Counted from the first letter of the stretch, positions 27,883-57,487 are shown. The stretch is 60,125 nt of DNA from Candidatus Hydrothermarchaeota archaeon (GCA_015521565.1 WANX01000078.1:1-60125), one strand, 5' to 3'. The notes: generated from the sequence alone by a model not told the origin. Made by a program: numbers and translations.

Positions 27883-27978
27883 GGTATTCTCCCCTATTAG
27901 AGGTGATTTTGGCGGCAATATATAAGCTTCGCTCTCGATAGTAAATATTATAAGGGCTGGCGGGGTTATGAATAAGAG

Positions 27979-31166: not shown

Positions 31167-31832
31167 CTATACCCAGTTCCTCACAAACACCGAACGAATG
31201 CCACTGGGCGATACCCTGGTTATCTCGCTCATCGTTCCGCCCACCGGCAGTATGGTTATTGTGAACTCCCTGTTGCCCTCGAGGGGATACGCCTTCCCGT
31301 TGGCCTCTATCCAGAAGTGCAGCTCCAGGTACTCTCCCTTTTCAAGCACATTATTTTTGTTCTGCTCAAAAACAGGAACCACGTAGAAGTCGGCCACGCC
31401 GTTTACAGTGCCATCGCTGTTGCTTGTGCTGTTTTCGGCGAGAGAGGGATTTGAGGTGATGGTGGCGTTGTGAACAATTCCGCTTATGTAAACGTCCCCC
31501 GAGAAATAGTTTAAAATAATGTCGTCGTAGCGAATCTCAGAGCTGCCCGGTGCCAGAGTCACAAGGATTATAAGCTTTGTTATATTCGGGCCACCGTTGT
31601 TCCAGGTTTCGTTGGCGTAGGCGTAGCCGGTGAGATCGACTATTTTGATGTTTGTCGAAACCTCCTTGGTGGCCTCCTCTCCCGTGGACCTGGCCTTGGA
31701 CTGCAAAGTTCCTGTGGTCTTGAGGAGAACTCCGGCGGTAATCGCTGCCACCATTACCATGGCTATGAATACTATAAGCGTTCCGATGCCAATCTGTGCC
31801 CTGTTGTTCCCCGGAATCGCCGGCGCTTTAAT
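31167..31832 (-). CDS. flaB: archaellin (FlaB/ArlB); 5' end extended beyond the track ATG to a non-canonical start
   Basis: The track ORF starts at MVMVAAITAGVLL (31760). However, the in-frame upstream codons encode ...PGNNRAQIGIGTLIVFIA, the conserved class III signal cleavage site and N-terminal helix. There is no ATG/GTG/TTG between the upstream TAA and this motif. Candidate starts are ATT 31832 or ATA 31838. Confidence 0.75.
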   Translation of the reverse strand: MKAPAIPGNNRAQIGIGTLIVFIAMVMVAAITAGVLLKTTGTLQSKARSTGEEATKEVSTNIKIVDLTGYAYANETWNNGGPNITKLIILVTLAPGSSEIRYDDIILNYFSGDVYISGIVHNATITSNPSLAENSTSNSDGTVNGVADFYVVPVFEQNKNNVLEKGEYLELHFWIEANGKAYPLEGNREFTITILPVGGTMSEITRVSPSGIRSVFVRNWV

Positions 31833-31862
31833 TTTTATTCCCCCGGTTTATGTCTGGTTGAG

Positions 31863-31874
31863 TTTATATATAAA
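31863..31874 (-). promoter_or_regulatory. TATA box for the archaellin gene
   Basis: Palindromic tttatatataaa lies 25-40 nt upstream of the ATA/ATT candidate starts. It sits in the 60-nt gap after the upstream FlaF/G-like gene. Confidence 0.5.
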
Positions 31875-31901
31875 CATTTTTTTTCTTATTACGAAAATCG
31901 G

Positions 31902-32342
31902 CTATGCATTGAAGTAGTACTCGTCCCATATTCCCGGCACCGCAAGCACCTTGACGGAGTATCTTCCCGGAGTTACGGCAGTTATATTTACCTCCAGTAT
32001 CTCATCAGGGTCCCACAGTGAGTTCTGAATGTTTACACTTCTGTTGAGTATGCGTGTCCCCAGGATTTCAACCCGTCTTCCATTGAGGAAAACCAGCAGG
32101 TTATCCGGAATAAGGACGCTCTTTCCTGAATTTAAGATGTATATGGAGGTGTTGCCGCTCCCGGAATAGACGTGGACCACCTCAACATCTGCTTCCAGCC
32201 TCTCCACCAGCAGATACGACTTCTGGGAGATGCTGCTGCTCACCGACTGTGAGGCGTCGCTAACAACTCCCGCCACTCCGGTGGCCACCACCACAGCAGC
32301 AATGAAGAAGATTGCGTGCGCAGCGGTTGTGCTGAACCCCAT
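31902..32342 (-). CDS. archaellum protein, FlaF/FlaG (ArlF/ArlG) family
   Basis: MGFSTTAAHAIFFIAAVVVATGVAGVV N-terminus and a beta-rich domain (VEVVHVYSGSGNTSIYILNSGKS). Confidence 0.75.
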   Translation of the reverse strand: MGFSTTAAHAIFFIAAVVVATGVAGVVSDASQSVSSSISQKSYLLVERLEADVEVVHVYSGSGNTSIYILNSGKSVLIPDNLLVFLNGRRVEILGTRILNRSVNIQNSLWDPDEILEVNITAVTPGRYSVKVLAVPGIWDEYYFNA

Positions 32343-32344
32343 GC

Positions 32345-32788
32345 CTAACCACCTCTGAACCTGTACTCAGGCGTCCACAGCAGTGAATTGAGAACAGCCA
32401 CAGTATTCCAGCCGGTATTCAGGGTGGTGCTCAGGTTTATCTCCAGCACCTCCCCGGTACCCCAGAGCCCATTTCCCCGTGGATTGACTATCACCATGCT
32501 GGAAGGGCTCACCCACTCTCCGTTTACCCTCACCTGACTGAGGCCGGGGTCAAGGGGCACACCGCCCGAGTTCACCACGTACACCGACAGGTTGGTGCCG
32601 TCTGTCCAGACATGTACCACCTCTATCTCTCCGGAGACAATCTCCTCCAGCTCCCACTTCTTGGCGAGCGCCCCGCTTTCAATAATTGAAACCTGATGGT
32701 TGAGGACTCCCACAAGGCCTGCGGATACCATAACTGTAGCCAGGAACATCAGCACCATGGGTACGGATTCAGCCATGGCTACTCCCAC
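32345..32788 (-). CDS. archaellum protein, FlaG/FlaF (ArlG/ArlF) family
   Basis: N-terminal hydrophobic helix VPMVLMFLATVMVSAGLVGVL and IEVVHVWTDGTNLSVYVVNSGGV, parallel to its neighbours. Confidence 0.7.
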   Translation of the reverse strand: MGVAMAESVPMVLMFLATVMVSAGLVGVLNHQVSIIESGALAKKWELEEIVSGEIEVVHVWTDGTNLSVYVVNSGGVPLDPGLSQVRVNGEWVSPSSMVIVNPRGNGLWGTGEVLEINLSTTLNTGWNTVAVLNSLLWTPEYRFRGG

Positions 32789-33471
32789 CTGTAGATGTAA
32801 CTGTCCGCAGGAAGCACATGAGAATGCGGTAGCGCCTCCCCTGCATGGTAGAGGTCGCTCACCCCCCGCTCCCCAACCACTTTAATTGTCCTGTTAAATC
32901 CCAGCGGCGTTGAAATAAGCACCACGTCTCCCGGAAGCCAGTAGAAGCTATCCGAAGTGTTTGTTACCACAAACTCACTAACAGCCAGAGTTATGTTGAA
33001 CCAGCCCACTATTCCATAGAGCTGGTCAGGGTCCGGGGTGGAAGGATTGTAAATCTGGGTATCATCCTGCGTGGTCAGCACCAGCGGTATTGATGCGCTG
33101 CTGTTGTGATATGCACCCTTGACCAGGTAGGTTTTGTTTACATACTTGACCCTGAAGTACCCCAGAGCGATGACAGAGAAGTTCTCCTCAATCCACACGC
33201 CATCAATAATAAGAGAGAGCTTATCCGGATTCAGAGCTGTGCTGCCGGTATTCTCCACATAGATGTAGGTGCTGCCCGGACGGGCTGTTACATTGACAAT
33301 CTCAACCCCTGTGTTCAGAAGGTCCTGACTCCGCCTCACCTGCTCCTGCATTTCCTCCGCCAGAGAGGTGAAGAAGGCCTCTCCAGCGTTCAGAAGCTCT
33401 ACTGCTGCCACCATCCCTGCCATAAAGACTATGAGAAAGGCGGCAGCGGTGGAAAATCCCATGGCCACCAC
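32779..33471 (-). CDS. enlarged FlaF/FlaG-family archaellum protein (230 aa)
   Basis: MGFSTAAAFLIVFMAGMVAAV and VEIVNVTARPGSTYIYVENTGSTALNPD, with an additional roughly 90-aa insertion or extension. Confidence 0.65.
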   Translation of the reverse strand: MVAMGFSTAAAFLIVFMAGMVAAVELLNAGEAFFTSLAEEMQEQVRRSQDLLNTGVEIVNVTARPGSTYIYVENTGSTALNPDKLSLIIDGVWIEENFSVIALGYFRVKYVNKTYLVKGAYHNSSASIPLVLTTQDDTQIYNPSTPDPDQLYGIVGWFNITLAVSEFVVTNTSDSFYWLPGDVVLISTPLGFNRTIKVVGERGVSDLYHAGEALPHSHVLPADSYIYRWE

Positions 33472-34401
33472 CTACACTATTCCGGACTCGTCCAGCTGAT
33501 TTACCACCTCTGAATACAGCGTGGGGCTAACCTCAAGCCCCTGAAGCTTTATTATAAAGAAGAGGGAGATGATGTGCTCAAGCACTGTAAGCTTTCGGTT
33601 ACCCCGGGATGCACGCGTACCTCCCAGGTCGCGGGAGTACTTTATTATCTGGTCCCTCACCTCCCGGGTAATCCACCCCACCTCCTCGTAGAAGAGGAGC
33701 GTTTTTATCATGCCCTGATATCCTGCCTTTTTTATCAGGAAATCCAGCCACTTGAACAGGAGCAGGAGGGAGTTGGGGTCGTTGTTTATTCTCTCCAGTC
33801 TCACGCGGTCGCCGTTTGGCTTCAGCTCAACCACACGCCTGTCCATCACCTTCTCCTCGAGCGCAATACCCGGGGAGGAGGAGCTGACGGCCACCGCCTC
33901 CTCCTTTTTCTTCTCCTCCCTGCCGTTCCCGTTCTCTGTGCCATTGGAATAGCCGATGAAGGGGTTTATTTCGTTGGTAACAAGCTCATATACCGAGAGC
34001 AGACTCTCCATGCTCTTTTCTATCTTTGAAATTCTTTCATCAAATCCGCTCACCAGGGACTCTATCTTGGCGACGGTATCGCTGATCTCGGACACCCTCT
34101 CCTCCAGCTGGGAAATCGCCTCCCCGGATACGCCTGCAGCAGGCTGGGCAAAAGGTTCTTCTTCTGCAGTGGCCCCGCCGAAGGGCGGTGCATCGTCCCC
34201 ACTTTCCTCCTCCTGAGAGAAAAAGGGGGGCACGTCCTCCTCTGCATCAGTCTTTACCACTTCTTCGATACCTCCTTCATCCTGGGCAAAGGGTGGTACT
34301 TCAGAGTCCTCTTCCAGTGCCTTTTCATTGAGTTCTCCCAGATCTATCTTCTTGTCCTTCAGCCCCAGTATCAGACCTGTGCTGAGCAGCTCAAGCATCA
34401 A
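33472..34401 (-). CDS. FlaC-FlaD/E fusion-type archaellum protein (ArlCDE-like)
   Basis: Central SLLSVYELVTNEINPF is FlaC-like. C-terminal LLLFKWLDFLIKKAGYQGMIKTLLFYEEVGWITREV is FlaD/E-like. The N-terminus is acidic with PPF repeats. Confidence 0.75.
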   Translation of the reverse strand: MMLELLSTGLILGLKDKKIDLGELNEKALEEDSEVPPFAQDEGGIEEVVKTDAEEDVPPFFSQEEESGDDAPPFGGATAEEEPFAQPAAGVSGEAISQLEERVSEISDTVAKIESLVSGFDERISKIEKSMESLLSVYELVTNEINPFIGYSNGTENGNGREEKKKEEAVAVSSSSPGIALEEKVMDRRVVELKPNGDRVRLERINNDPNSLLLLFKWLDFLIKKAGYQGMIKTLLFYEEVGWITREVRDQIIKYSRDLGGTRASRGNRKLTVLEHIISLFFIIKLQGLEVSPTLYSEVVNQLDESGIV

Positions 34402-35056
34402 CTCTTATCCCCTCCCTGCAGGCAGAGTCGGCCGCCCGTATCGTTGCTGCATTCTCCACAGCTGCCGAAGAGGAGGGCAGAGATGAAGCATCGCCCCTGA
34501 TGCGGTTCAGCTCAGCTTCCAGCTCCCTTATCCTGCGCCTCAGGTTCCTTATGTTTATCTCCTTTATAATTCCCAGCCTGTACCACCTCTCTATCTCCTT
34601 CCGGAAGGCGTCGGGGTTTCTGAAGCTGGCTGCACTGGTGCTGGAACTTCTGAACCACTCTTCCAGCTCCTTCAGGCTGTACAGGAGTTCCTGGTCCTCT
34701 ACTGGCAGGTTTACTCCACCCACCTCCCCCATGGGGGAGGTGGACGGGGGCCTTCTCACAGGTATAGGGTCTGCCATGTTCATCTTCCCCTTCAGCATCG
34801 CCCCATAGGTTATTAATGCTATTCCGGCGAAGGCGATGTAGAGTATGAACCAGGTGGCAATACTGCCCTCCTCGTTTACCACAATGTTCACGGGCAGCAG
34901 CATTATGAGCATACCCACCATAGCGGTGAGGGACCAGTAAAGGCTCCAGACCATTCTGTTCTTCTTCTTGAGGTAGTCCTCAATTTCATTCATAAGCACC
35001 GCTTCTGGCGAACTCCTGAATATGAGCATCCCCCCGTTGGTATATAATATCCCCAT
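34391..35056 (-). CDS. two-TM membrane protein with C-terminal coiled coil, first gene of the archaellum operon
   Basis: TM segments LTAMVGMLIMLLPVNIV and WFILYIAFAGIALITYGAML. Coiled coil IRNLRRRIRELEAELNRI. 11-nt overlap with the next gene. The start may be the internal Met of MNEIEDY. Confidence 0.55.
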   Translation of the reverse strand: MGILYTNGGMLIFRSSPEAVLMNEIEDYLKKKNRMVWSLYWSLTAMVGMLIMLLPVNIVVNEEGSIATWFILYIAFAGIALITYGAMLKGKMNMADPIPVRRPPSTSPMGEVGGVNLPVEDQELLYSLKELEEWFRSSSTSAASFRNPDAFRKEIERWYRLGIIKEINIRNLRRRIRELEAELNRIRGDASSLPSSSAAVENAATIRAADSACREGIRVDA

Positions 35057-35077
35057 TTTCCAGCCTATTTAAAAGTT

Positions 35078-35091
35078 GTTTTTCGAAAAAC
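35078..35091. promoter_or_regulatory. perfect 14-nt palindrome GTTTTTCGAAAAAC, with a second TTTCGAAA core at 35140-35147
   Basis: Read directly from the sequence. Both lie in the 141-nt AT-rich region upstream of the archaellum operon, next to a TTTAAATA box (minus-strand reading of 35066-35074). Confidence 0.45.
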
Positions 35092-35197
35092 AAAGGTTGG
35101 GTTAAAAATCTTCTAAAAAATTTCCCGTTATTTTTCGCTTTTCGAAAGTAAACATATATCTATCTGTGCGGCCATCCTTTAAAGGGGGTGCTGAAAA

Positions 35198-35347
35198 GTG
35201 TGGACCTGTCCCGTGTGCGGCTCTATGGAATTTGTGATGACACCCAACGGCGGCAGGGTTCAGAAGGTCCGCTGCGTTGCCTGCGAGCGAACCTTTGTGC
35301 TGAATGAACCCCTGCCCCTGGATGACGGGTACAGCAAAAACTGGTAG
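35198..35347 (+). CDS. small zinc-ribbon protein, 49 aa (below track cutoff)
   Basis: My translation is VWTCPVCGSMEFVMTPNGGRVQKVRCVACERTFVLNEPLPLDDGYSKNW. It has two CxxC pairs. GGGGGTG lies 8 nt upstream of GTG 35198. Confidence 0.45.
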   Translation: MWTCPVCGSMEFVMTPNGGRVQKVRCVACERTFVLNEPLPLDDGYSKNW

Positions 35348-35350
35348 CGG

Positions 35351-35830
35351 CTAAAGCTTCCTGACTCCAAGTCTGGCGGTCTTAACCAGCATGGTGCCCG
35401 AAGAAGTGTCGAACTCCACAGTTCTTCCGACACTGCCACCGGTGTCCTCAGCAACTATCCTTATATCCTCTCTTCTGAGGACCTCCCTCACAGCATGCAC
35501 ATTCTTTCTGCCTATGTAGTCGTCCTTCGGGATAAAGGAGAACATCTTGGCCCCGCCGGCGATTTTGGCAATCAGCCTTGACCTGTTTGCACCGAGCTTC
35601 TCCATCTTTTCAATTGCCAGCGGAATAGCTGTATCTGCATACTTCGCCCTGTTGTCCACCGGCTCAGAGCCTCTGCTGAAGGGGAGCATTATATGGGCAA
35701 GAGAACCAACCTTCTTTTTTGAATCAAAAAGAGCAACCCCCACACAGGAGCCCAGTCCTATGCTCACCAGCCTTGCGGGCTCCGTGGCGGCCTTAACGTC
35801 TGCGATGTCCACCACAATAACCGGAGGCAT
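35351..35830 (-). CDS. cheD: chemoreceptor glutamine deamidase CheD
   Basis: GLGSCVGVALFD..VGSLAHIMLP and the overall CheD pattern. Confidence 0.9.
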   Translation of the reverse strand: MPPVIVVDIADVKAATEPARLVSIGLGSCVGVALFDSKKKVGSLAHIMLPFSRGSEPVDNRAKYADTAIPLAIEKMEKLGANRSRLIAKIAGGAKMFSFIPKDDYIGRKNVHAVREVLRREDIRIVAEDTGGSVGRTVEFDTSSGTMLVKTARLGVRKL

Positions 35831-35832
35831 GC

Positions 35833-36459
35833 TCAGGCACCCAGCCCCACCTTCTCTCTGAGCATTGTCACTATCCTGTCCAGGGACTCCGGGTCGGGCA
35901 TGAGGAATATGTTCCCGCTTATCTGGCGTGGCTGAAATATAAATCTGGTTTTAAAGAGGATGGCGTCACCCGTCTTGCAGGCCTGCTCCAGCATAATAAA
36001 GTCCAGCAGTGCCGCTGCCATGTCCACTGCAAGGGCTGGCGGCATCGGCATTATCTTCATTCCCAGAAAGTCGGCGAGAGCGTTGGAGAAGTGGGATGCC
36101 ATGATGTTTCCCACCTCCTGAAGCACAGATACCTCCATCTCAGTGAGTTCCTCTCCTGCAGGAGGCATGCCCGTTATCTGCTCCACCAGCTGCAGTGCTG
36201 AGGCGATGTCCAGCATTAACACAATAACGCCATTCACATCTCCCTCAAGCTCCACATACACCCCGGCCACCAGCTCTTCACCGCCCTCGCGGGAGATGAG
36301 CTGTTCCACGGGCCGTATCTCCAGCGCAGGAACCTCTATGCTCACCTTGGTGCCCGTCATCTCGGCCAGGGAATTTGTAGCATGGCTCGCCCCTATGCTG
36401 CCCACCTCACGCAGCATATCCATTTCCAGCTCATTCAGAATCAACTGCCTTGCCATCAT
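35833..36459 (-). CDS. cheC: CheY-P phosphatase CheC
   Basis: Duplicated motif LREVGSIGASHATNSLAEM / LQEVGNIMASHFSNALADF. Confidence 0.9.
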   Translation of the reverse strand: MMARQLILNELEMDMLREVGSIGASHATNSLAEMTGTKVSIEVPALEIRPVEQLISREGGEELVAGVYVELEGDVNGVIVLMLDIASALQLVEQITGMPPAGEELTEMEVSVLQEVGNIMASHFSNALADFLGMKIMPMPPALAVDMAAALLDFIMLEQACKTGDAILFKTRFIFQPRQISGNIFLMPDPESLDRIVTMLREKVGLGA

Positions 36460-38333
36460 CCAACCTCCAGAGAAGCTATATCCAGTATCAGGGACACCCT
36501 ACCATCGCCCATGATGGTAGAGCCCGCAAAACCGCGCACATCCCTGAGCTTTCCTTCCAGCCCCTTTATCACAATCTCCTGCTGTCCTATCAGCTCGTCC
36601 ACCGCGATTCCTATCAGGTTGCCGCCTTTCTCAACCACAACCACCGGCCTGGCATCACTCCCATTTCCGGTGGCGGGCTTTCCGAGAAGTGTTATAAGGT
36701 CGTACACCGGGAGTATCCTGCCGCGAAGCTGTATCACCTCCTGCCCCATAACCGTGGTTAAATCCTCCCTCTTCACATTTAGTATCTCACTCACATTGTT
36801 CAGCGGGATGGCGTATATCCTCCCTCCAGCGGAAATGAGCAGCGCCTTTGTTATTGCCAGCGTGAGCGGAAGCTTAAGCACAAACCTGGTGCCCCTGTCA
36901 ACCTCCGACTCCAGCTCCACAGTTCCACCAAGGGCAAGAATCTTATTTCTCACCACATCCAGCCCCACACCTCTGCCGGAAATATCAGTAACCTTTTCTG
37001 CAGAGCTGAAGCCCGGGGTAAATATCAGCATCCTGGCATCCTCCGGGGACATTCCGCTGGCTTCTTTCTCACTTATCAGCCCCCGCTCCACCGCAATCCT
37101 CTTTATCTTCTCGGGGTCTATCCCTCTCCCGTCATCCTCCACAACTATTTCAACGTGGTCCTTCACACGTCTGGCCTTGAGCATTACCCTCCCGACCTCA
37201 CTCTTTCCCTTTTCGAGCCTCTCCTCTGGAGGCTCAATTCCGTGGTCAATGCAGTTCCTGAGAAGGTGCACCAGCGGATCCCCTATCTCGTCAAGCACCG
37301 TTCTGTCCAGCTCTATATCTCTGCCCTTTACGATAAATTCTACCTTTTTACCCTCCTTTTTTGCCAGATCTCTAACCATACGCGGAAATCTGTCAAAAAC
37401 ATAGCTCACCTCAACCATCCGCATCTCCTGGACCTCTTCCTGGAGACTGGTGGTGAGTTTATCGATATATGCCAGCGTTTCGTTGAGCTCATCAATTGCA
37501 TACTTATTCTTAATCTGAAATAGGCGACTCTTACTTATTACAAGCTCTCCCACCAGATTCATCAGAGAGTCCAGCCTTTCTATAGAAACACGCACGGTCT
37601 GCACACTCTTCATCTCACTTTTAGTACCGCCGCTTTTCTGTGGAGCCGTTTCCACGCTGTGTACCTCTACTCCGGCAACCTCACTCACCTTTTTAAGAAT
37701 CCTCTCCTTTATTTCATCGTCAGAAGCGCCGGTTTTCAGGAAGATGGAAAAACTCCTGTCAAAGTCCCCATCCTCAAGTCTGTCCTCGTCTGGTATGCAC
37801 TTTACTATTTCTCCCAGCTCCTTCAGCTCTCTGAAGGTCATGAACGCCCTGACCGACTTCAGGGTGCAGTCCCTGTCCAGCTCCACATCCACCCGCTTCA
37901 CACCGGCACCAGCCCTGTGCACTTCCTCCGCCCCATCCCTCCTCTGCGGCTGCTTCTCTTTCTTCCCTGTGCCTGTGTACCTGCTCAGCTTGCTGCTGAT
38001 CTCTGTGGCGTCGATGTTCTCCTCATCCCCCTGGGTAAGCGAGTTGAGGGCAGCCTCCAGCAGGTCCACTGCCTCAAAAAGCAAATCCACAATCTCAGAG
38101 TTTATCTCCACACGACCTTCCCTTATTGCATCCAGCAGGTTCTCCATCTCGTGGGTAATGCTTGCCATGCCCTCATAGCCCATGGTTGCGGCCATCCCTT
38201 TGAGGGTGTGGGCCGCCCTGAAAATTTCTGTGATAACCTGCTGATTGCCTTTCTCGAGCTCCAGAAGCCCCTGGGTGAGGGTATTGAGGTGCTCCATTGA
38301 CTCACTTATAAACACATCCCTGTAACTTTCCAT
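36456..38333 (-). CDS. cheA: chemotaxis histidine kinase CheA
   Basis: P1 AHTLKGMAATMG. H-box-less dimerisation domain. HATPase motifs (HLLRNCIDHGIE, DDGRGID, SGRGVGLDVV). C-terminal CheW-like domain. Confidence 0.95.
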   Translation of the reverse strand: MESYRDVFISESMEHLNTLTQGLLELEKGNQQVITEIFRAAHTLKGMAATMGYEGMASITHEMENLLDAIREGRVEINSEIVDLLFEAVDLLEAALNSLTQGDEENIDATEISSKLSRYTGTGKKEKQPQRRDGAEEVHRAGAGVKRVDVELDRDCTLKSVRAFMTFRELKELGEIVKCIPDEDRLEDGDFDRSFSIFLKTGASDDEIKERILKKVSEVAGVEVHSVETAPQKSGGTKSEMKSVQTVRVSIERLDSLMNLVGELVISKSRLFQIKNKYAIDELNETLAYIDKLTTSLQEEVQEMRMVEVSYVFDRFPRMVRDLAKKEGKKVEFIVKGRDIELDRTVLDEIGDPLVHLLRNCIDHGIEPPEERLEKGKSEVGRVMLKARRVKDHVEIVVEDDGRGIDPEKIKRIAVERGLISEKEASGMSPEDARMLIFTPGFSSAEKVTDISGRGVGLDVVRNKILALGGTVELESEVDRGTRFVLKLPLTLAITKALLISAGGRIYAIPLNNVSEILNVKREDLTTVMGQEVIQLRGRILPVYDLITLLGKPATGNGSDARPVVVVEKGGNLIGIAVDELIGQQEIVIKGLEGKLRDVRGFAGSTIMGDGRVSLILDIASLEVG

Positions 38334-38353
38334 GCACCCCCTCCATGCATCCC

Positions 38354-38710
38354 TCAGCAGAGCTTCTCAATAACCTCCAGCACCTTACTTTCTTTGAAGG
38401 GCTTAACTATAAAGTCCCTGGCGCCTGCTTCCAGCGCCTCCTTCACCATGGCCTCCTGACCGAGAGCGCTGACCATTACAATCTTCGCCTCCGGGTCAAT
38501 TGACATAATCTTCTTCACCGCCTCTATCCCGTTCACCTCGGGCATGATTATATCCATAGTCACCACATCAGGCCTCAGCTCCCTGTACTTCTCAACGCCC
38601 TCTGCACCGTTCTGCGCCTCTCCGACTATCTGATGACCGTTCTTTCCCAGGATATTTTTCAGCATCATCCTCATAAAAGCGGCATCGTCAACCACCAGAA
38701 TCTTCGCCAT
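38354..38710 (-). CDS. cheY: chemotaxis response regulator CheY
   Basis: MAKILVVDDAAFMRMM, VVTMDIIMPEVNG, and FIVKPF. ATG 38710 follows a GGGGGG RBS. The track start 38749 overlaps the upstream gene. Confidence 0.9.
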   Translation of the reverse strand: MAKILVVDDAAFMRMMLKNILGKNGHQIVGEAQNGAEGVEKYRELRPDVVTMDIIMPEVNGIEAVKKIMSIDPEAKIVMVSALGQEAMVKEALEAGARDFIVKPFKESKVLEVIEKLC

Positions 38711-38712
38711 AA

Positions 38713-39879
38713 TCAAACCCCCCTTTTCAGAGGAATCGCAATAGTGCATCTTGTACCCGTGTTGCGCCCCCTGCTCTCGAGATGTATTCTGCCGCCGTGG
38801 AACTCCACAATCTTGCTCGCCAGTGTCAGACCGAGACCTATCCCCGGATATCTGCGTGATGCCGAGGAGTCCTCCTGGTAAAAGGGTTCAAAAACCCTCT
38901 CCAGGTTTTCTTCCGCAATACCCACTCCGGTATCTTCCACGATTATCTCTACCATTCCGTTCACCGTACGGGTATTCACCTTTACCACACCTCCCCGCCT
39001 GTTGAACTTTATGGAGTTGTCTATTACCTGCTCAAGAGCATAAATAATGTAGGCCGGGTCCACCTCCACTCTGGGTACCCTCTCCAGATTCAGGTCGAAT
39101 CTCACCTCTCTCTGGGCGGCAAAGGGAAGCTTTTCCTTAACCGCTTTATGAACAAGAGATGTAATGTCCTCCTTTCTGAAAACAAGAGTCATAACACCTC
39201 TTCTTATCTTGGAAAGCTCCAGCATACCGTCGATTATCCTGTTCTCACGCATCAGATTCCTGCGTGCCATGAGCAGAAGCTCCCTGAGCTTTGCGGCGTT
39301 CTTCTCCTCCATTGCCAGGTCTATGCATCCCATGGAGATGGTGAGAGGAGTCTTCAGCTCATGGGAGACTATGGAGAGGATGTCAGTGGTTACACCTTCC
39401 AGGTCTCTGAGCCGCCTGTTCACGTCCATGAGCCTCATGTAGGACCTCTCCAGCTCAGACCTGAGCCTCCTGATAACCTCGGAGAAGTCGGCGATGGCTA
39501 TCACAACTCTGGCAACCCTCAAAGAAGAATCCCTGATGGGGTGGAATGTAAACTGATACGGCCCTGGAATTCCGGTGCACGGATTCACATCCACTGCGGT
39601 AAAGGGCTTCCCGGACATAATGGTGCGGAGCGCCGGGCATGTGTCTGCAGAAAAGGTGCAGTTGAGCACAGTTCTGCAGGAGGTGCACACGGCCTCATTT
39701 CCGAGGATGCCCATGAGCCTCGCAAACTCATCATTATATGAGCGTATTCTGAGTCTTCTGTCTATTTCAACAATCGCAATTCCCGTCTCACCTCTGTCAC
39801 CCGAGTCGGTAATGTCTGCTCTTGAGGTGGGGACGGTGTCCACGTACTGGGCGGCTTGCAGCTTGTTCCCCTCCGCCAT
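38713..39879 (-). CDS. cytoplasmic sensor histidine kinase with Cys-rich PAS-like N-terminal domain
   Basis: H-box SIVSHELKTPLT, N-box DNSIKF, G-boxes EDTGVGI and GIGLGL. N-terminal CTSCRTVLNCTFSADTC cluster. Stop lies 2 nt before cheY. Confidence 0.85.
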   Translation of the reverse strand: MAEGNKLQAAQYVDTVPTSRADITDSGDRGETGIAIVEIDRRLRIRSYNDEFARLMGILGNEAVCTSCRTVLNCTFSADTCPALRTIMSGKPFTAVDVNPCTGIPGPYQFTFHPIRDSSLRVARVVIAIADFSEVIRRLRSELERSYMRLMDVNRRLRDLEGVTTDILSIVSHELKTPLTISMGCIDLAMEEKNAAKLRELLLMARRNLMRENRIIDGMLELSKIRRGVMTLVFRKEDITSLVHKAVKEKLPFAAQREVRFDLNLERVPRVEVDPAYIIYALEQVIDNSIKFNRRGGVVKVNTRTVNGMVEIIVEDTGVGIAEENLERVFEPFYQEDSSASRRYPGIGLGLTLASKIVEFHGGRIHLESRGRNTGTRCTIAIPLKRGV

Positions 39880-51775: not shown

Positions 51776-51940
51776 AAAGGATAATACTGTCTCGTACAAT
51801 TAAATATTTTTCTATAAAGTAAAATAAATAAAATGCAGCTGGAGTAAACAGAAATAAAGGGTTATAAAGCTTTGAAAATTTCTGCTTCGAAAGTATGCTT
51901 TTATTAACCAACCTGAAAGATGCTGACGGAGGTGATAAAA

Positions 51941-53119
51941 ATGAAAGCAATGAAACTGCTTTCAATAGCTCTGGTGGCGATGCTGGCGCTCAGCCTGCTT
52001 CCGCCGGGTTACGCGCAGCCGCCACCTGTGAAGAAGGCAGAGGAGAGATACAAGGCGGCCAAGAGCAGCTATCTGAGCGCTATGGAGATGTACAAGAACG
52101 CCAGGCAGGACTTTATGAAGATACGTGGGCCTGCGAAGCGTGGAACGGTGCCCTTTGATAAGCTGCAGAACTTCGTGCTCCGCAGCATTGATGCCATGAT
52201 AGCGCACATAGAGCTGGTCAAGGCCAGGGTGGAGATGAGCGGAGCGCTCACAGAGGAGGAGAAGTTGGAGGCTATTGAGAGGCTGGATATCTACGTGTCG
52301 TATCTGAAGGAGAAGCGGATTGAAGCAGAGCAGGCGGAGAACCGGGAGCAGCTCCTGAAGGTTGGCAGGGAGGTAAGAACAAAGTGGCTGGAGGTTAGAC
52401 TTGAGGTCAGGAAAATCGCAGGCAGGGTGATAATTTCCAGAATTGACAGGATCCTGACCAGGGCAGAGGGGATAGGCGACAGGCTGGAGGTGCGCGTGGA
52501 AGCGCTGAGCGAAGCAGGGGAGGACACCACGGAGCTTGAGGCTCTGCTTCAGCAGTACAGAGAACACCTCTCCCTTGCCGCAGAGAAGAGAAACATGGCA
52601 GAAGAAAAGCTGAATGCTGTCACTTCCCCGGAAGATGCCGGAAGCCTGAGAGAGGCACACACCTACCTGAGGGAAACAAACAGACATATTAAGGAGATGT
52701 TTGTGGCACTGAGGCAGATAGCCAGGGAGCTCAGGGATAGGGAGGTCACCGTCACAGGCTTCGGTGCCCTGTTTGCAAGGGGCAACGGCAGCGCGGTGCT
52801 TCGGGGTGATGGCGGTGTGTTTGTCTCAGGAAACGGCACGCTGACGGTGAAGGTAAGCAGCGGCAGAGTTCGCGTGGTGGGTGCAGGAGAAAAGCAGGAG
52901 AACGAAGATGGCAGCGTCACCTACAGCGGATTTGGAAGAGCAAAGGTGGTGGGCAGAGGTATCCATGTCAGCGTAACCGGTGAAAATCTGCTCATCAGGG
53001 CAGTTGGAAGGGGCACCGCAGAGCTCTCCGGCACTGGTGAGTGGCGCACCGTCAGAGTGGCCGGCAGCAGCTGGAGCGGAGAGGTCAGCTACGGAGGTGA
53101 GGTGAATGAGAGCAGTTAG
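51941..53119 (+). CDS. secreted helical protein with C-terminal Gly-rich beta-repeat region
   Basis: GGAGGTGA lies 5 nt upstream of ATG 51941. Signal peptide MKAMKLLSIALVAMLALSLLPPGYA. About 270 aa of helical/coiled-coil sequence, then the repeats VTGFG..RGNG..RGDG..SGNG..GAG..GRG. Confidence 0.65.
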   Translation: MKAMKLLSIALVAMLALSLLPPGYAQPPPVKKAEERYKAAKSSYLSAMEMYKNARQDFMKIRGPAKRGTVPFDKLQNFVLRSIDAMIAHIELVKARVEMSGALTEEEKLEAIERLDIYVSYLKEKRIEAEQAENREQLLKVGREVRTKWLEVRLEVRKIAGRVIISRIDRILTRAEGIGDRLEVRVEALSEAGEDTTELEALLQQYREHLSLAAEKRNMAEEKLNAVTSPEDAGSLREAHTYLRETNRHIKEMFVALRQIARELRDREVTVTGFGALFARGNGSAVLRGDGGVFVSGNGTLTVKVSSGRVRVVGAGEKQENEDGSVTYSGFGRAKVVGRGIHVSVTGENLLIRAVGRGTAELSGTGEWRTVRVAGSSWSGEVSYGGEVNESS

Positions 53120-53354
53120 TTTGCTGCTGACCCTGACGCTGCTGGGCCTCTTCACGGGCTGCGCTCAGGTGGACGGGAAGGGACAGCAGATTACGCCTGC
53201 GGATACACAGGAATCTTACCCGGAGAGGGAAGCTCCGCAGTCTCAGGTTAATACAGAGGACACCGAAATAGACTCGCTTCTCCAGGAGATTCAGATGCTG
53301 GATGAGTTCCTCGGCGAAATAGAGGGCATAGATAGCATCGAAGCGGAGTTTTAG
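53106..53354 (+). CDS. small acidic lipoprotein
   Basis: MRAVSLLLTLTLLGLFTGC lipobox. GGAGGTGAGGTGA RBS. 14-nt overlap with the upstream gene. Confidence 0.6.
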   Translation: MRAVSLLLTLTLLGLFTGCAQVDGKGQQITPADTQESYPEREAPQSQVNTEDTEIDSLLQEIQMLDEFLGEIEGIDSIEAEF

Positions 53355-53367
53355 GGGGTTTTCCCCC
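53354..53367. terminator. GGGGG-TTTT-CCCCC hairpin between convergent genes, followed by a T run
   Basis: Read directly from the sequence. It sits in the 25-nt gap between stop 53352-53354 (+) and stop 53380-53382 (-). TTTTTT lies at 53376-53381. Confidence 0.5.
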
Positions 53368-53379
53368 AACTTCAGTTTT

Positions 53380-54141
53380 TTAGACAAAGCTTATGTAGCA
53401 CTTCGCCCTGGCAGGCATACCGAATTTTGCTGCGATCTCTTCTGTGGTTGACACACTTGTTCTCTCGAGCTCCTTTGTGAGGGACTCTTCGAATTTGGCA
53501 TCTCTGGAGCCCATAATACCTCTGGAGTACCTCACAACGGCTATAACAATAAATTCTATTGTGCCGTTGTCGATGCTGGAGATAATCCTGAGTCCCCACC
53601 TCTTAACCCGCGGGTTTTGCCCGAGTCTCTCCCGGAGTCTCTCCCTGAACACCCTGGTAATCTCAAGCTTTTTGCCTGTGTTGAGCAGATAGTCTGCGAC
53701 AACGATTCCGAAGATGTCGTCATGAGGCTTCCCATACAGCTCAACGCCGGCATCCGCAGCGGCAGCGGGGGTGGCTGCGCCTACCCGGCGGCGTCTCCCG
53801 GCGCTTTCGCCCCCGATTATCCTGCGCAGGTACATGTTCAGCAGCGGTATGTTGGGCTTCCTTGTGAACTCCAGGTATACTATGTGGTCCCCCATTCTCC
53901 TTACATAACTTGCCCCCTCTGGTTTCTCTATCACCATTTCCTCCAGGTCGTCCAGGTCAAAGAGTATTGAAAGCTTGAAGGCAAGCTCCTCCTGGTCTGT
54001 GATGTCGCAGCCCACTATCTCTCCGTCTCTGTAGAGAACCGCGCAGCTCTTTATGTACCTGAAGCTGAGCTTCAGCTTTTCCAGCTGTTTCCTTGCGGAA
54101 TCCACACCCTCCGGCTGTCTTTCAGCCACCTTCAGCGACAT
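53380..54141 (-). CDS. Roadblock/LC7-like domain protein with extra C-terminal domain (operon gene 5; paralog of 54653..55102)
   Basis: YIKSCAVLYRDGEIVG..QEELAFKLSILFDLDDLEEMVIEKPEGASY..VYLEFTRKPNIPLLNMYL, then an RRRR/Ala-rich linker and a domain of about 120 aa that I do not recognise. Confidence 0.6.
   Translation of the reverse strand: MSLKVAERQPEGVDSARKQLEKLKLSFRYIKSCAVLYRDGEIVGCDITDQEELAFKLSILFDLDDLEEMVIEKPEGASYVRRMGDHIVYLEFTRKPNIPLLNMYLRRIIGGESAGRRRRVGAATPAAAADAGVELYGKPHDDIFGIVVADYLLNTGKKLEITRVFRERLRERLGQNPRVKRWGLRIISSIDNGTIEFIVIAVVRYSRGIMGSRDAKFEESLTKELERTSVSTTEEIAAKFGMPARAKCYISFV
53919..53994. repeat. 76-nt segment identical to 54925..55000 (plus 27 nt at 53827..53853 identical to 54833..54859)
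   Basis: Direct comparison of the two stretches shows a constant offset of 1006 nt. The flanking bases differ. Confidence 0.9.
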
Positions 54142-54637
54142 TCTTTACCAGCCCCTCAGAAGCTTTTTGAAGTTCTGCCGGGATATCGGCAGATTCCATG
54201 TCGAGAATTTCGTATGCATCTATTATAGCCCTGTTTTCAGTGATAAGCTTTCTGTAGTCCCCCTCTATATAGCACAAGTTCCCGTTCCTGTAGAGCATCG
54301 TTACCCTTCTTGCCTTTCTGGAGAAGGCCACAATTATAATATCCTCTCTTCCCTCCCGGAGCTTTTTTATATCCTCGAGAACAGAGCTGCTCATCACAGT
54401 CTCAAGCTTATTAACCAGGTACCCGGTTTCCCGCACCCTGATTTTTCTGCAGGATGTGTACACAGCAACAACCATCTGTGTCTTCTCTTTAAGTTTTCCT
54501 CCTTTTTCCAGCACAATCCTCCCGTTTCTGGCCACAATCAGCCTTCTTCCATCTGTGGCCTTTATCAATCTGCCTCTGGAGAGGCGCATCAGCTCTTCCC
54601 TGTCAACCTCTTTTCGCAGCACTTCCGCGGGCTTCAT
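54122..54637 (-). CDS. PATAN/DUF4388-like protein (operon gene 4; paralog of 55394..55960)
   Basis: MKPAEV..., RLIKATDGRRLIVARNGRIV, GYLVNKLET, and MLYRNGNLCYIEGDYRKLI. The family call is tentative. Confidence 0.55.
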   Translation of the reverse strand: MKPAEVLRKEVDREELMRLSRGRLIKATDGRRLIVARNGRIVLEKGGKLKEKTQMVVAVYTSCRKIRVRETGYLVNKLETVMSSSVLEDIKKLREGREDIIIVAFSRKARRVTMLYRNGNLCYIEGDYRKLITENRAIIDAYEILDMESADIPAELQKASEGLVKNVAEGG

Positions 54638-54652
54638 ACAGCAGCGCTCCCG

Positions 54653-55102
54653 CTACCTCAGGCTGAAAATCCTGGAAACATCTTCCCAGCCGGCGTCCTT
54701 CTCCCGGGATTCCTTCTCTTCCTCCTCAGCTTTGCTTTCCGCATCCCGGGCACTCTTCATGACCCCGGAAAGGACTGTTTCAACCCTCTCTTCTATATCT
54801 GACTTTCTGTCCCTCTCAGAAAAAATCTTCTTCAGGTACATGTTCAGCAGCGGTATGTTAGGTTTCTTTGTGAATTCAAGAAAAACAAGTCTGCTGTCGT
54901 AGAGCTTTATGTAGCTCGCCCCCCCTGGTTTCTCTATCACCATTTCCTCCAGGTCGTCCAGGTCAAAGAGTATTGAAAGCTTGAAGGCAAGCTCCTCCTG
55001 ATTATCCACATCTATGGTTACCACATCCCCCTCTCTGTCCAGCAGCATACAGCTTTTTATGTACTTAATCCCCTTTTTCAGCTTCTCCAGATCCTCTTTC
55101 AT
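54653..55102 (-). CDS. Roadblock/LC7-like domain protein with acidic tail (operon gene 3)
   Basis: YIKSCMLLDREGDVV..QEELAFKLSILFDLDDLEEMVIEKPGGASY..VFLEFTKKPNIPLLNMYL. ATGA overlap with the upstream gene. Confidence 0.6.
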   Translation of the reverse strand: MKEDLEKLKKGIKYIKSCMLLDREGDVVTIDVDNQEELAFKLSILFDLDDLEEMVIEKPGGASYIKLYDSRLVFLEFTKKPNIPLLNMYLKKIFSERDRKSDIEERVETVLSGVMKSARDAESKAEEEEKESREKDAGWEDVSRIFSLR

Positions 55103-55434
55103 ATGGAAACCCCCGAGATTATATCGGTGATATCCGAAAGAATCGACGCCTCGGGGGTGTTCTTGTCAAAAAAGACCACCAGTTCCGCCTCCTCATGCCT
55201 TACAACCACAGCCCTGCAGTCTGAGAACCTGAGCTTCGCTGTGGTGAAGTCCTCGCAGAGCTCACTGATGAGCGCAGCCGGAATAATTGCCATCTCCTTC
55301 AGGTCCTGCTTCTCTTCTGCCCCTATGATCTCCCCGTCTTTTATAACATAGCAGGAGATTACATTCTCCAGAGCTGCTATATCGCTCGCCAGCTTATGGG
55401 CTATAATATCCTCCAACTCTATCACCAAGCGCAT
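55099..55434 (-). CDS. small Roadblock/LC7-like protein (operon gene 2)
   Basis: 111 aa. VISCYVIKDGEIIGAEE...AVVVRHEEAELVVFFD follows the strand-helix-strand pattern of the fold. The start is uncertain because of a 41-nt overlap with gene 1. Confidence 0.5.
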   Translation of the reverse strand: MRLVIELEDIIAHKLASDIAALENVISCYVIKDGEIIGAEEKQDLKEMAIIPAALISELCEDFTTAKLRFSDCRAVVVRHEEAELVVFFDKNTPEASILSDITDIISGVSI

Positions 55435-55960
55435 GCTGTATAATCCTGTCTATCTCCTCATCCGTGGGCTCCCTAAGCTTGAACCTCTGCAGCACCTGCT
55501 CACGGGTGATGGTGCTCTCTTCTCTGAGCACCTCATACACATCGAATATCACACGCTTCTCCTGAAGAAGGCGGGTGTACTCCCCCTCACAGTGGAGCAG
55601 TGTGCCATTTCTGAAGACCATGAGCACTTTTTTAAGCCTCTTTGAAAAGGCCTCCACCAGCACATGCTCATGCGTCTGGGCTATTCTTTCCAGGTCTTCC
55701 TTAACACTGTGGCTAATCTTACTCTCCAGCTTGTTCACAAGATAGTCAACGTTGTTGAGCCGTATCTTCTTCCGGGCGGCGTAGAGGGCTATCACCATCT
55801 CCTTCTTATTTTCAGGAGGATCCCCCCGTGCAGCCACAATCCTCCTGTTCTGTATTATTATTGTGGACTTCCTGTCAGTGGCCTTTACAAGATACCTTTC
55901 AGAAAGTTCCAGCAGGTCTCCAATATCGACAACCGCCTTGTAAACCTTATGCGGCTTCAT
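55394..55960 (-). CDS. PATAN/DUF4388-like protein (operon gene 1)
   Basis: Start moved to MKPHKVYKAV (55960) by alignment with the paralog start MKPAEV. IGDLLELSERYLVKATDRKSTIIIQNRRIVAA, DYLVNKLES, and MVFRNGTLLHCEGEYTRLL. Confidence 0.55.
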   Translation of the reverse strand: MKPHKVYKAVVDIGDLLELSERYLVKATDRKSTIIIQNRRIVAARGDPPENKKEMVIALYAARKKIRLNNVDYLVNKLESKISHSVKEDLERIAQTHEHVLVEAFSKRLKKVLMVFRNGTLLHCEGEYTRLLQEKRVIFDVYEVLREESTITREQVLQRFKLREPTDEEIDRIIQHALGDRVGGYYSP

Positions 55961-56105
55961 AGCCCGCCTCACTCGCCGGCAGATTATAATTTTAAGATGT
56001 CTTCAATAATATATAAACTTAACGCCATTTTTTATTAAGAATGCCCACAAATGTTCATTATATTAAAACTAAAATTTTCTTAAATATTTAATTTTAATTA
56101 AAAAC

Positions 56106-56582
56106 CTATTTTACCACCACTGTCGCCCAGTTCTGGGCAACAGCCAGAATACTGCTCGGAGAGTTCTCCAGCACCTCCCTGACCACATTCCCGGTGAGCT
56201 CTGGCTGCTTTGAGTTCACCCCCAGAACCAGCAGGTCGGCGCCCTCCTCACGCGCCGCATTTACAATCTCCTCAGCGGGGGGTCCGACTCTTATAATCTC
56301 CTGTGCCTCCACGCCGCTGTCCTTCAGGCACAGGTTTGCTATTTCAATGACCCGCCATCCCCTCTCGTTGAGCAGGTCCTTTACATCTTTTCCCTGCTCT
56401 TTCAGCGACTCCAGGGTTTCCCTGAACTGTGCCTCGCCAAGAAGGTCGTGGTGGTGCATATCTCCGATATTGGCCACATACACGTACTTCAGCTCACCTC
56501 CCAGGGTCTTCACCAGCTTTATACCGGCGGTGAGCGCCTTTATAGAACTGTTACTCCCATCGAAGGCCACCAGCACCTTCAT
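56106..56582 (-). CDS. universal stress protein (UspA family)
   Basis: KVLVAFDGS, LLVLGVNS, and GNVVREVLENSPSSILAV pattern. Confidence 0.8.
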   Translation of the reverse strand: MKVLVAFDGSNSSIKALTAGIKLVKTLGGELKYVYVANIGDMHHHDLLGEAQFRETLESLKEQGKDVKDLLNERGWRVIEIANLCLKDSGVEAQEIIRVGPPAEEIVNAAREEGADLLVLGVNSKQPELTGNVVREVLENSPSSILAVAQNWATVVVK

Positions 56583-56707
56583 AGTGGTAATATTCTATTG
56601 GTATCTCATATTTATATATTTCGAAATTCACGGGTTCTACATTTAAACTGCAGGTGAAAAGTTTTATATAATTCTACAAAAAATGATAGTCTGAGGGGTC
56701 AGCCCTT

Positions 56708-57487
56708 ATGGCAGTTTCAATAACCATAGCCTCCGGGAAGGGTGGCGTCGGCAAAACGATGCTTACCACCAATCTGGGCATTGCCATGGCCCAGTTTGGC
56801 AGAAATGTGACAATACTCGATGCCGACATAGAGATGGCAAACCTGGAGCTACACCTGGGCATGGAGGGTATGGACATAACACTGCAGGACGTGCTTGCCG
56901 GAAAGGCTGAAATATCCCATGCCCTGTACCGCGGCCCTGCCGGAGTTACTGTTGTACCTGCCGGTATAAGTCTGGACGGCCTCAGAGAGGTTGACATGGA
57001 CAAGCTTGAGAGGGTGCTCAGGAAGCTCCTCAGCGAAACAGAAGTGCTGCTCATCGATGCACCCGCCGGTCTCGGCAGGCCCGCTGTCACAGCCCTCGCC
57101 TCCGGAGAGCACCTGCTTCTGGTCACAAACCCTGAGATATCCTCCCTGTGCGACGGTCTTAAGACGGCGATGGTCGCCCGCAGGCTCGGCACAAGTGTCC
57201 TCGGAGCGGTTGTAAACCGTGTTGGATTCGACAGGGATGTAATTGATGTGAGGGACATAGAATACATCCTCGAAACCAGGGTTATAGCCACAATACCCGA
57301 GGACCCAGAAGTCAGACGCGGCACCACCTACGGCGAGCCTGTGGTGGTTCGTACCCCCGATTCACCGGCCGCGCAGGCCATAAAGAAGCTTGCAGCAGAC
57401 CTGCTGGGTGAGAAATACACCCCACCCCGGACTTCGAAGATGGGCTTCTTCCGCCGCCTCATAGACGGAATCTTCGGCAGGGTTTAG
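56708..57487 (+). CDS. minD: archaeal MinD/ParA-family P-loop ATPase
   Basis: Deviant Walker [23 protein letters not shown], and LLIDAPAGL. Confidence 0.85.

Follow-up and report, generated by a model that had tools for sequence, protein, structure and literature searches.

What might be the function of five tightly packed genes, four of them belonging to two duplicated families, that are encoded close to a MinD-type ATPase and have no GTPase gene beside them? The question is raised by positions 53380–55972 of a 60,125-nt stretch of DNA from Candidatus Hydrothermarchaeota archaeon (GCA_015521565.1, WANX01000078.1:1-60125; the whole stretch is referred to below as the window), where an initial annotation, made from the sequence alone, recognized a PATAN-like/Roadblock-like operon that might represent an undescribed polarity or NTPase-regulatory module. 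We find that the operon has a core of three genes that recurs in several archaeal lineages, that one of the three families has a supported Roadblock/LC7 fold and that another is predicted to be a new tandem-repeat protein. Our tentative hypothesis, which we hold at somewhat less than an even chance, is that the products form a complex that serves MinD and the machinery of type IV filaments (pilus or archaellum) as an adaptor or regulator; the complex, its partner and its target are all things that we infer.

Organization of the operon

The genes, here called G1 to G5, all lie on the minus strand (Table 1), and the open reading frame (ORF) table and the individual junctions agree with the packing first described. 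G1 and G2 overlap by 41 nt (23 nt if G2 begins at TTG), G2 and G3 share an ATGA overlap at 55099–55102 that can be read directly in the sequence, G3 and G4 are separated by 15 nt, and G4 and G5 overlap by 20 nt. The G1 ORF reaches back to a GTG at 55972, and the conserved MKP start corresponds to the ATG at 55960, with GAGTGAGG 6 nt upstream of it and GAGG preceding the start. The alternative TTG start of G2 lies six codons in, follows GGTGA and agrees with the MEDII start of the orthologues. The composition of two duplicated families and one singleton is likewise borne out by BLAST: G1 and G4 (family F1) are 42% identical over 150 aa (E 8e-42), G3 and the N-terminus of G5 (family F2) are 65% identical over 94 aa (E 1e-43), and G2 has no BLAST similarity to G3.

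Comparison with the orthologous locus L008 gave dN/dS values of 0.13 (G1), 0.03 (G2, the lowest of the five), 0.13 (G3), 0.18 (G4) and 0.16 (G5); all five are therefore real genes under purifying selection, and the recurrence of the cluster in other genomes places the operon far beyond chance. The view that these are chance ORFs or decaying duplicates that form no functional unit could appeal to a search of Pfam and NCBIfam, in which none of the five proteins had a match at threshold, and to the fast evolution of G4, which is only 42% identical between orthologues. It is, however, already refuted by the conservation data and retains practically no probability, as dN/dS is low in every gene, the AlphaFold2 (AF2) models are confident and the gene order is kept across genomes of 33 to 60% GC.

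Upstream of G1, the intergenic region 55973–56105 (133 nt, minus strand) has a GC content of 21%, against 55% for the window, and contains a TATA-box-like TTTATATA at 56017–56010. The AT-richness noted in the initial annotation is thus real, and we regard the region as a putative archaeal promoter. The hairpin that had been annotated as a terminator, GGGGGAAAACCCCC (GGGGG-AAAA-CCCCC), is present at 53354–53367 between the convergent G5 and an 82-aa ORF, yet it can be called only a putative terminator because no T-run follows it on the operon strand and a consensus terminator scan made no call.

Distribution and conserved core

The conserved operon is known to date from only a few archaea of hydrothermal vents. 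HMMER, used with an F1 profile on 1.84 billion representative proteins, gave six matches, word-indexed homologue searches returned 4 clusters for G1, 15 for G5 and 7 for G2, and pattern scans found four loci in 185,579 species genomes and a single locus, the window itself, in metagenomes. The labelled sources are all archaeal metagenome-assembled genomes (MAGs) from hydrothermal or other hot environments, namely Candidatus Pyrohabitans, Hydrothermarchaeota, a 'Methanobacteriota archaeon' and an Archaeoglobales archaeon. Gene neighbourhoods, which were read from contigs and not from whole genomes, fall into six independent lineage contexts (A–F), and because of these we take the trio F1-G2-F2 to be the conserved core.

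In lineage A, the Hydrothermarchaeota (window/L015, L008, L009/L001 and L004), the order is Na+/H+ antiporter, MinD (divergent), Usp and then F1-G2-[F2short-F1b]-F2long; downstream come an 82-aa ORF, which is convergent, and a secreted coiled-coil protein of 399 aa. Within this lineage L009 has a three-gene form, and in L004 the MinD gene has been relocated from its upstream, divergent position to one directly downstream of, and convergent with, F2long, so that it is still adjacent. Lineage B (L010/L024, 39% GC) has Usp-F1-G2-F2long, with no MinD within 7.6–10 kb upstream and with downstream coverage of 0.8 kb (L024) to 3.2 kb (L010). The most extensive arrangement is that of lineage C (L006/L007, L011 and L016–L018, 33–37% GC), where 13 genes lie on one strand, nowhere more than 47 nt apart, and encode, in order, minD_arch, a protein of 56 aa, a coiled-coil protein of 154 aa, four small polytopic membrane proteins, the trio F1-G2-F2long, a tandem-fused T2SSE ATPase (1107–1113 aa) and two T2SSF proteins. 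Lineage D (L019/L022) has a helix–turn–helix (HTH) regulator followed by F1-G2-F2short, lineage E (L012–L014, Archaeoglobales) has F1, a distant G2-like protein and then an HTH protein, and in lineage F (L020/L021) a fusion protein stands alone among metabolic genes. Linkage of the trio to MinD is thus a feature of lineages A and C and linkage to Usp one of A and B, and only C adds type IV filament genes.

The F2-short orthologues are 68–85% identical to one another, and the five-gene form seen in the window is thus an old partial duplication within the Hydrothermarchaeota. The expectation that the five genes would co-occur in related genomes therefore holds in part: the cluster does recur, but what is conserved is the three-gene core, and the five-gene form is lineage-specific.

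Several features of the other loci are of interest in their own right. The cluster of lineage C occupies L006:4302–14187, is found also in L011, L016 and L017, and has reverse gyrase adjacent to it; its four membrane proteins are paralogous, and the tandem T2SSE comprises two complete ATPase units in one chain. The 13-gene cluster as a whole resembles a type IV filament system of an unusual Tad/Epd-like kind. The fusion gene of lineage F (L020:2311–3507) adjoins 2-oxoacid:ferredoxin oxidoreductase genes and has no G2, MinD or Usp nearby. In lineage E, a 165-aa CDC48_N/AbrB-like gene (L012:7055–7552, minus strand) is divergent from the distant F1 homologue; its product matches the 154-aa coiled-coil protein of L006 with 56% identity over 55 aa only when low-complexity filtering is omitted, a similarity that may be coiled-coil noise.

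Family F2: a Roadblock fold and domain X

The Roadblock/LC7 pattern proposed for G3 and G5 is supported by structure prediction. An AF2 model of G5, built from a 15-sequence alignment, has residues 13–108 at a predicted local distance difference test (pLDDT) score of about 82–86, with the element order helix-strand-strand-helix-strand-strand-strand-helix, and a poorly modelled C-terminal half. Foldseek returned 60 matches to this model in the PDB at E<=1e-3, and the best 50 by E-value are all of the Roadblock/LC7 fold. Asgard Roadblock 7yh1 is the best match (E 1.5e-5, target-normalized TM-score 0.66), and LAMTOR2/MP1-p14, dynein LC7, Streptomyces Roadblock and Myxococcus MglB are among the others. 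G3 is assigned the same fold through its 65% identity to the G5 N-terminus, and its orthologue P0014 carries the Joint Genome Institute (JGI) label 'Roadblock/LC7/MglB'. At the sequence level, G2, G3 and G5 have no match to the Pfam profile Robl_LC7 (PF03259), only one of 15 F2 members has a Robl_LC7 sequence match (E 0.01), and profile searches of the PDB returned no Roadblock chain. The AF2 and Foldseek matches thus support a Roadblock fold for F2, and membership of the Pfam family is not supported. Of the checks proposed originally, the Pfam profiles gave no protein at threshold, and Foldseek identified the fold of the N-terminal domain of G5 as Roadblock and left G1 unmatched.

The extra domain of G5 that had not been recognized proves to be C-terminal and is here called domain X. 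It follows a low-complexity linker, has no PDB match in sequence or profile searches and is homologous to the C-terminus of a fusion protein, P0028 (27% identity, E 1e-8). G3 has a different layout, in which the Roadblock-fold domain is followed by an acidic disordered linker and a conserved C-terminal motif, WEDVSRIFSLR. Every F2-short protein (G3, nt 54653–54700; P0011, P0013–P0015 and P0018) ends in this way, with W[EKND]DV[SRE][RK]IFS[LM]R after the acidic disordered linker, and the position aligned with the motif in F2-long is the first helix of domain X. The motif may be an amphipathic peptide that binds a partner or the membrane.

Family F1: a tandem-repeat protein

In the AF2 model of G1 (mean pLDDT 83.8), a helix, a three-strand meander and a long strand make up a unit that occurs twice in similar form, and the second copy is followed by a helical tail at the C-terminus. 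The two halves of G1 align to each other (hhalign P 7e-4), and the second half also aligns with alpha1-beta1-beta2 of the F2 Roadblock domain (hhalign P 1.5e-4). By alignment, G4 is a fast-evolving paralogue of G1 without the helical tail. Foldseek found no match to the G1 model in the PDB (best E 0.034) or in BFVD (best E 0.0018), with TM-scores of at most 0.34, and no PATAN-annotated entry was among the PDB matches; F1 is thus predicted to be a new tandem-repeat protein without structural relatives in these two databases. PCNA and GHKL proteins recurred among the Foldseek matches of G1 and were rejected because of a root mean square deviation above 13 Å.

The initial annotation had likened this family to DUF4388/PATAN (PF14332), and this finds some weak backing: two of the eight members show matches, P0002 with 18.4 bits (E 0.0023, repeat 1) and P0003 with 13.5 bits (E 0.077, repeat 2), both below the gathering score of 25 bits. 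G1 and G4 themselves match neither this family nor DUF2226 (PF09987), which is the better, if marginal, candidate. DUF2226 is matched by five of the eight members, all below its gathering score of 22 bits (P0004 reaches 21.7 bits), and two divergent relatives of F1 pass that cut-off, P0028 with 30.3 bits and P0030 with 26.0 bits. Most other F1 members score 14–22 bits, and the matches cover only profile positions ~54–178 of 252. Canonical DUF2226 proteins were not among the matches at E<=1e-3 of the full HMMER scan with the F1 profile. On the strength of the member-by-member scans, including P0028 and P0030, F1 may be a divergent offshoot of archaeal DUF2226, a marginal similarity; the resemblance to PATAN is suggestive. 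A literature search for 'DUF2226' found nothing. The recurrent weak Pfam matches to CCB2_CCB4, T4_Spackle and Chordopox_A35R were treated as noise.

P0028 and P0034 represent a natural fusion of 390–398 aa in which F1 is joined to an extra PATAN-like repeat (GYLKVVFEHRRSPVGYLVVENGRIIGAY) and to domain X of G5; when the middle region of P0028 was compared with F1, G2 and F2 by hhalign, no significant alignment was obtained. From this Rosetta-stone link we argue that F1 and F2-long work together.

G2, the most conserved member of the trio

Between orthologues, G2 is 88–90% identical, compared with 70% for G1 and 49% for G5. It has no match in Pfam, NCBIfam or the PDB, and neither a widened G2 profile nor the distant G2-like protein has one in the PDB. 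Aligned by hhalign with the F2 Roadblock domain, G2 is collinear over 85 columns at a non-significant P of 0.048. G2 may be Roadblock-like, perhaps as a third, divergent Roadblock protein of the operon. The sequence and profile matches in the PDB that were obtained with G5, G2, F1, F2, domain X, the widened G2 profile and the distant G2-like protein, namely a Tctex dynein light chain (E 0.045), NADH oxidase, designed repeats and RNase III, were at chance level and were rejected.

MinD and other neighbouring genes

As first noted, the MinD gene encodes the nearest NTPase; its identity is upheld by its TIGR01969 score (Table 1), and we consider it the candidate partner NTPase of the operon. In the sequence of the protein we can read a deviant Walker A motif (GKGGVGKT) and a C-terminal amphipathic helix, and it is 60% identical to the MinD that heads the operon of lineage C. 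Its C-terminus (nt 57440–57487) closely resembles the membrane-targeting amphipathic helix of bacterial MinD and is kept in the L001, L004 and L006 orthologues. The claim that no GTPase partner is encoded also holds, as no small GTPase gene lies beside the trio in any of the six lineages, in flanks of 0.3–10 kb depending on the contig. The survey of neighbourhoods for NTPases thus associates the trio with MinD in two of six lineages, which is not universal, and with a small GTPase in none. A P-loop scan of the window found no Ras-like GTPase near the operon. The only GTPase-like P-loop is that of a 400-aa ORF about 45 kb away, which has no positional tie to the operon and is probably an Obg/DRG-type GTPase, with GKPNVGKS near its N-terminus and a DxxG motif. 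Besides this ORF and MinD, no plausible gene has a clear nucleotide-binding P-loop; three further pattern matches lie in a KefB/TrkA-type ORF or in ORFs that overlap other genes.

Usp and F1 are adjacent in the window, L008, L009, L004 and L010/L024, that is, in two lineages. The 125 nt between the divergent Usp and MinD genes have 31% GC and contain TATA-like TTTATATA and TTTTATATAA facing opposite ways, which suggests a shared divergent promoter region for the two genes. On the other side of the operon, the 399-aa protein has a signal peptide, a long coiled coil and a Gly-rich beta C-terminus; the 82-aa lipoprotein-like ORF overlaps its gene, and both are convergent with G5. These two ORFs occur at every Hydrothermarchaeota locus (55–70% and ~42–63% identity, respectively) and have no Pfam match.

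As first noted, the window carries archaellum and che genes (archaellin, ArlCDE and cheD/cheC/cheA/cheY at 31–39 kb). We do not count them in the unit, since they lie 15–20 kb away and are missing from the conserved neighbourhood at the other loci. A tblastn search of the 60-kb window with a T2SSE/T2SSF (ArlI/ArlJ-like) query found none, so that the archaellum motor genes must lie elsewhere. Two further ORFs, of 221 and 639 aa, have no Pfam match.

Table 1. Coordinates of the operon genes and of other features of the window
Feature	Position (nt)	Strand	Product or length	Remarks
G1 (F1a)	55394-55960	minus	188 aa	ORF table; start at ATG 55960
G2	55099-55434	minus	111 aa	~105 aa with TTG start
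G3 (F2-short)	54653-55102	minus	149 aa	
G4 (F1b)	54122-54637	minus	171 aa	
G5 (F2-long)	53380-54141	minus	253 aa	
G5 Roadblock-fold domain	53818-54105	minus	residues 13-108	predicted; AF2 and Foldseek
G5 domain X	53383-53739	minus	residues ~135-253	after low-complexity linker
MinD	56708-57487	plus	archaeal-type ATPase	TIGR01969 minD_arch 337.8 bits (cut-off 201.75); Pfam ParA/CbiA
Usp	56106-56582	minus		directly upstream of operon, same strand; PF00582 68 bits
Usp/MinD intergenic region	56583-56707		125 nt	
82-aa ORF	53106-53354	plus	82 aa	
399-aa ORF	51920-53119	plus	399 aa	
Archaellum and che genes	31167-38749			
221-aa ORF	34391-35056		221 aa	
639-aa ORF	26596-28515		639 aa	
400-aa ORF	8102-9304	minus	400 aa	

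A working hypothesis and its alternatives

Our working hypothesis is that the soluble cytoplasmic proteins encoded by the operon most likely assemble into one adaptor or regulator complex. By analogy with Roadblock proteins in general, the Roadblock-fold subunits would dimerize to form a platform; this platform would dock on the neighbouring membrane-binding MinD and tune its nucleotide cycle or its localization, and F1 and domain X would tie it to a type IV filament machine (the pilus or archaellum ATPase and platform protein), so that together the proteins would help to set where or when the filament machine assembles. Roadblock proteins such as MglB and Ragulator are established NTPase regulators or scaffolds. 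Besides that role, we base the mechanism on the operon of lineage C, on the MinD adjacency that has survived rearrangement in L004 and on published observations. Genes for FleN/MinD (arCOG00589) and for Roadblock proteins (arCOG02603) are recurrent members of archaeal type IV pilus loci (PMC4858521), both PilB1 and PilC are bound by PATAN domains (bioRxiv 10.1101/2021.06.11.447907), bacterial PATAN and MglB genes are neighbours (PMC4316618), and Haloferax MinD2 and MinD4, whose partners are unknown, position archaella and chemosensory arrays (PMC11588486; bioRxiv 10.1101/2020.04.03.021790). The close packing of the genes, the purifying selection on them, the conservation of the trio in six lineages, the fusion of F1 with domain X and the Roadblock fold predicted for F2 give further support.

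A number of observations weigh against this hypothesis. Its main weakness is that no NTPase is encoded nearby in four of the six lineages: MinD is adjacent in two, and none was seen within the 0.8–10 kb flanks in L010/L024, L012, L019/L022 and L020. Moreover, the whole region is syntenic in the Hydrothermarchaeota, so that MinD could be adjacent there through inherited gene order. A link of the trio to type IV filament genes is seen in a single lineage, the 60-kb window has no homologue of T2SSE or T2SSF, and the PATAN assignment is below threshold. A more far-reaching form of the hypothesis, in which the trio would be a previously unrecognized class of archaeal MinD partner, with a Roadblock platform regulating a SIMIBI-class ATPase and not a Ras-like GTPase, and with F1 and domain X coupling the MinD cycle to the ATPase and platform of a type IV filament machine, we regard as unlikely.

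The same neighbourhoods could be read as those of an NTPase-independent signalling or scaffold module tied to Usp (stress or nucleotide sensing) or to HTH regulators, the linkage to MinD and pilus genes being incidental. This is somewhat unlikely, yet it accommodates the four lineages without a nearby NTPase, the HTH-domain genes that flank the trio in L012 and L022, the fusion P0034 alone among metabolic genes, and the orthologous Usp genes that two lineages have immediately upstream in the same orientation, at a distance from F1 of only ~40 nt in L010/L024. It has to contend with the absence of Usp from the other four lineages and with the AT-rich gap and TATA-like box that separate Usp from G1 in the window; the 13-gene operon of L006, which runs from MinD to T2SSF, is hard to call coincidence, and characterized Roadblock proteins mostly act on NTPases or motors. 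Quite unlikely, in our judgement, is a classical MglB-type module, in which the Roadblock proteins would be the GTPase-activating protein or guanine nucleotide exchange factor of an unlinked small Ras-like or Arf-like GTPase, with F1 as a PATAN-like accessory. MglB is among the structural matches to the Roadblock fold, the bacterial association of PATAN, MglB and MglA neighbourhoods is documented (PMC4316618), and a GTPase could be encoded elsewhere in genomes that were seen only as contigs. MglB-type genes normally adjoin their GTPase, however, and here none of the six lineages has one beside the trio in flanks of 0.3–10 kb, the sole Ras-like P-loop ORF of the window being the distant GKPNVGKS protein.

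The trio might instead act as MinE/MinC-like regulators of an archaeal MinD oscillator that places the division site or chromosome and not a filament machine. This would suit a minD_arch next door with a membrane-targeting helix of the bacterial type, and the amphipathic motif of F2-short could bind MinD or the membrane. It would also be in line with the lack, to our knowledge, of MinE and MinC in archaea. We nevertheless consider this highly unlikely: in the one lineage whose operon is informative, the genes are coupled with T2SSE and T2SSF and not with division genes, the family is far too rare for a general MinD regulator, the archaeal MinDs that have been studied act on motility machinery and not on division (PMC11588486), and a different, GTPase-based system, Dip, has been proposed for divisome placement (PMC13228585). 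The Dip system was itself rejected as a match for our operon, since it is composed of a GTPase, a DUF2073 protein and a Zn-ribbon protein (PMC13228585).

If the more far-reaching form of our hypothesis is correct, the trio would be the first regulators of archaeal MinD and would extend NTPase control by Roadblock proteins from GTPases to ParA/MinD ATPases. No MinE-like partner is known for archaeal MinD. As ancient regulators of NTPases, Roadblock proteins are so far known either to act on small GTPases or to serve as dynein and Ragulator scaffolds. The operon offers concrete candidates both for MinD partners and for the uncharacterized cytoplasmic accessories of archaeal type IV filament systems, and it adds two sequence families, tandem-repeat F1 and domain X, for which the databases searched hold no structural relatives. 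Its narrow distribution, in a handful of hydrothermal-vent MAGs, limits generality and hampers experiments.

Comparison with known systems

The proposal of an undescribed module stands in so far as no characterized system has this composition; on the other hand, Makarova et al. (2016, PMC4858521) had earlier recorded Roadblock together with MinD genes in the type IV pilus loci of archaea. These accessories share with the L006-type operon a MinD-family ATPase, a Roadblock-fold protein and small membrane proteins together with T2SSE and two TadC-like T2SSF proteins, whereas that work contains no description of families F1 and G2 or of domain X, and the published Roadblock/MinD associations are comparative-genomic notes without function. 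DUF2226 is an uncharacterized archaeal family, with P0028 and P0030 passing its cut-off and G1 and G4 not matching it; membership would explain nothing, because the family has no known function.

The best structural matches to the N-terminal domain of G5 (7yh1, 9jq8, 6ehr and 1veu) are eukaryotic and Asgard Roadblock/LAMTOR (Ragulator) dimers, and the presence of several Roadblock-fold paralogues in one system suggests heterodimers. Sequence identity to these proteins is, however, only 12–22%, no Rag- or Arf-type GTPase is encoded here, and domain X is absent from LAMTOR-type proteins. With the cyanobacterial PatA-type regulators (PixG, PixE and LsiR, with a PATAN domain that binds PilB1 and PilC) the likeness lies in a possible PATAN-like unit encoded directly upstream of a PilB/ArlI-family ATPase in the L006 lineage; by analogy, this suggests a shared logic in which a cytoplasmic adaptor acts on a filament motor, although F1 has no receiver domain, matches DUF4388 in two of eight members only (E 0.002–0.08) and is linked to no che-type input. 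From ParA/MinD positioning systems (MinD-MinE, TadZ/CpaE of Tad pili, FlhG/FleN of flagella and Haloferax MinD2/MinD4) the present loci differ in that the candidate partners are of the Roadblock fold, are unrelated to MinE or to FliM/FliY peptides and have no recognized activator motif, and the linkage is not universal; what is shared is a membrane-binding deviant-Walker-A ATPase beside small cytoplasmic proteins and, for MinD, a TadZ-like position at the head of a Tad/Epd-like operon.

The MglA/MglB and PATAN systems of Myxococcus and other bacteria differ from the present loci, which are archaeal, have no MglA-type GTPase and stay below the Robl_LC7 and DUF4388 thresholds; F2 adds domain X, and F1 is a tandem repeat without a REC domain. 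In both, a cytoplasmic Roadblock-fold protein is encoded beside a PATAN-like protein of a helix plus a beta-meander, and in one of our lineages the genes are linked to a type IV pilus-type ATPase, just as MglA/MglB sort PilB and PilT. Overall, the operon most resembles this bacterial theme of polarity, with its Roadblock (MglB) and PATAN proteins, and the MinD/Roadblock accessories of archaeal type IV pilus loci.

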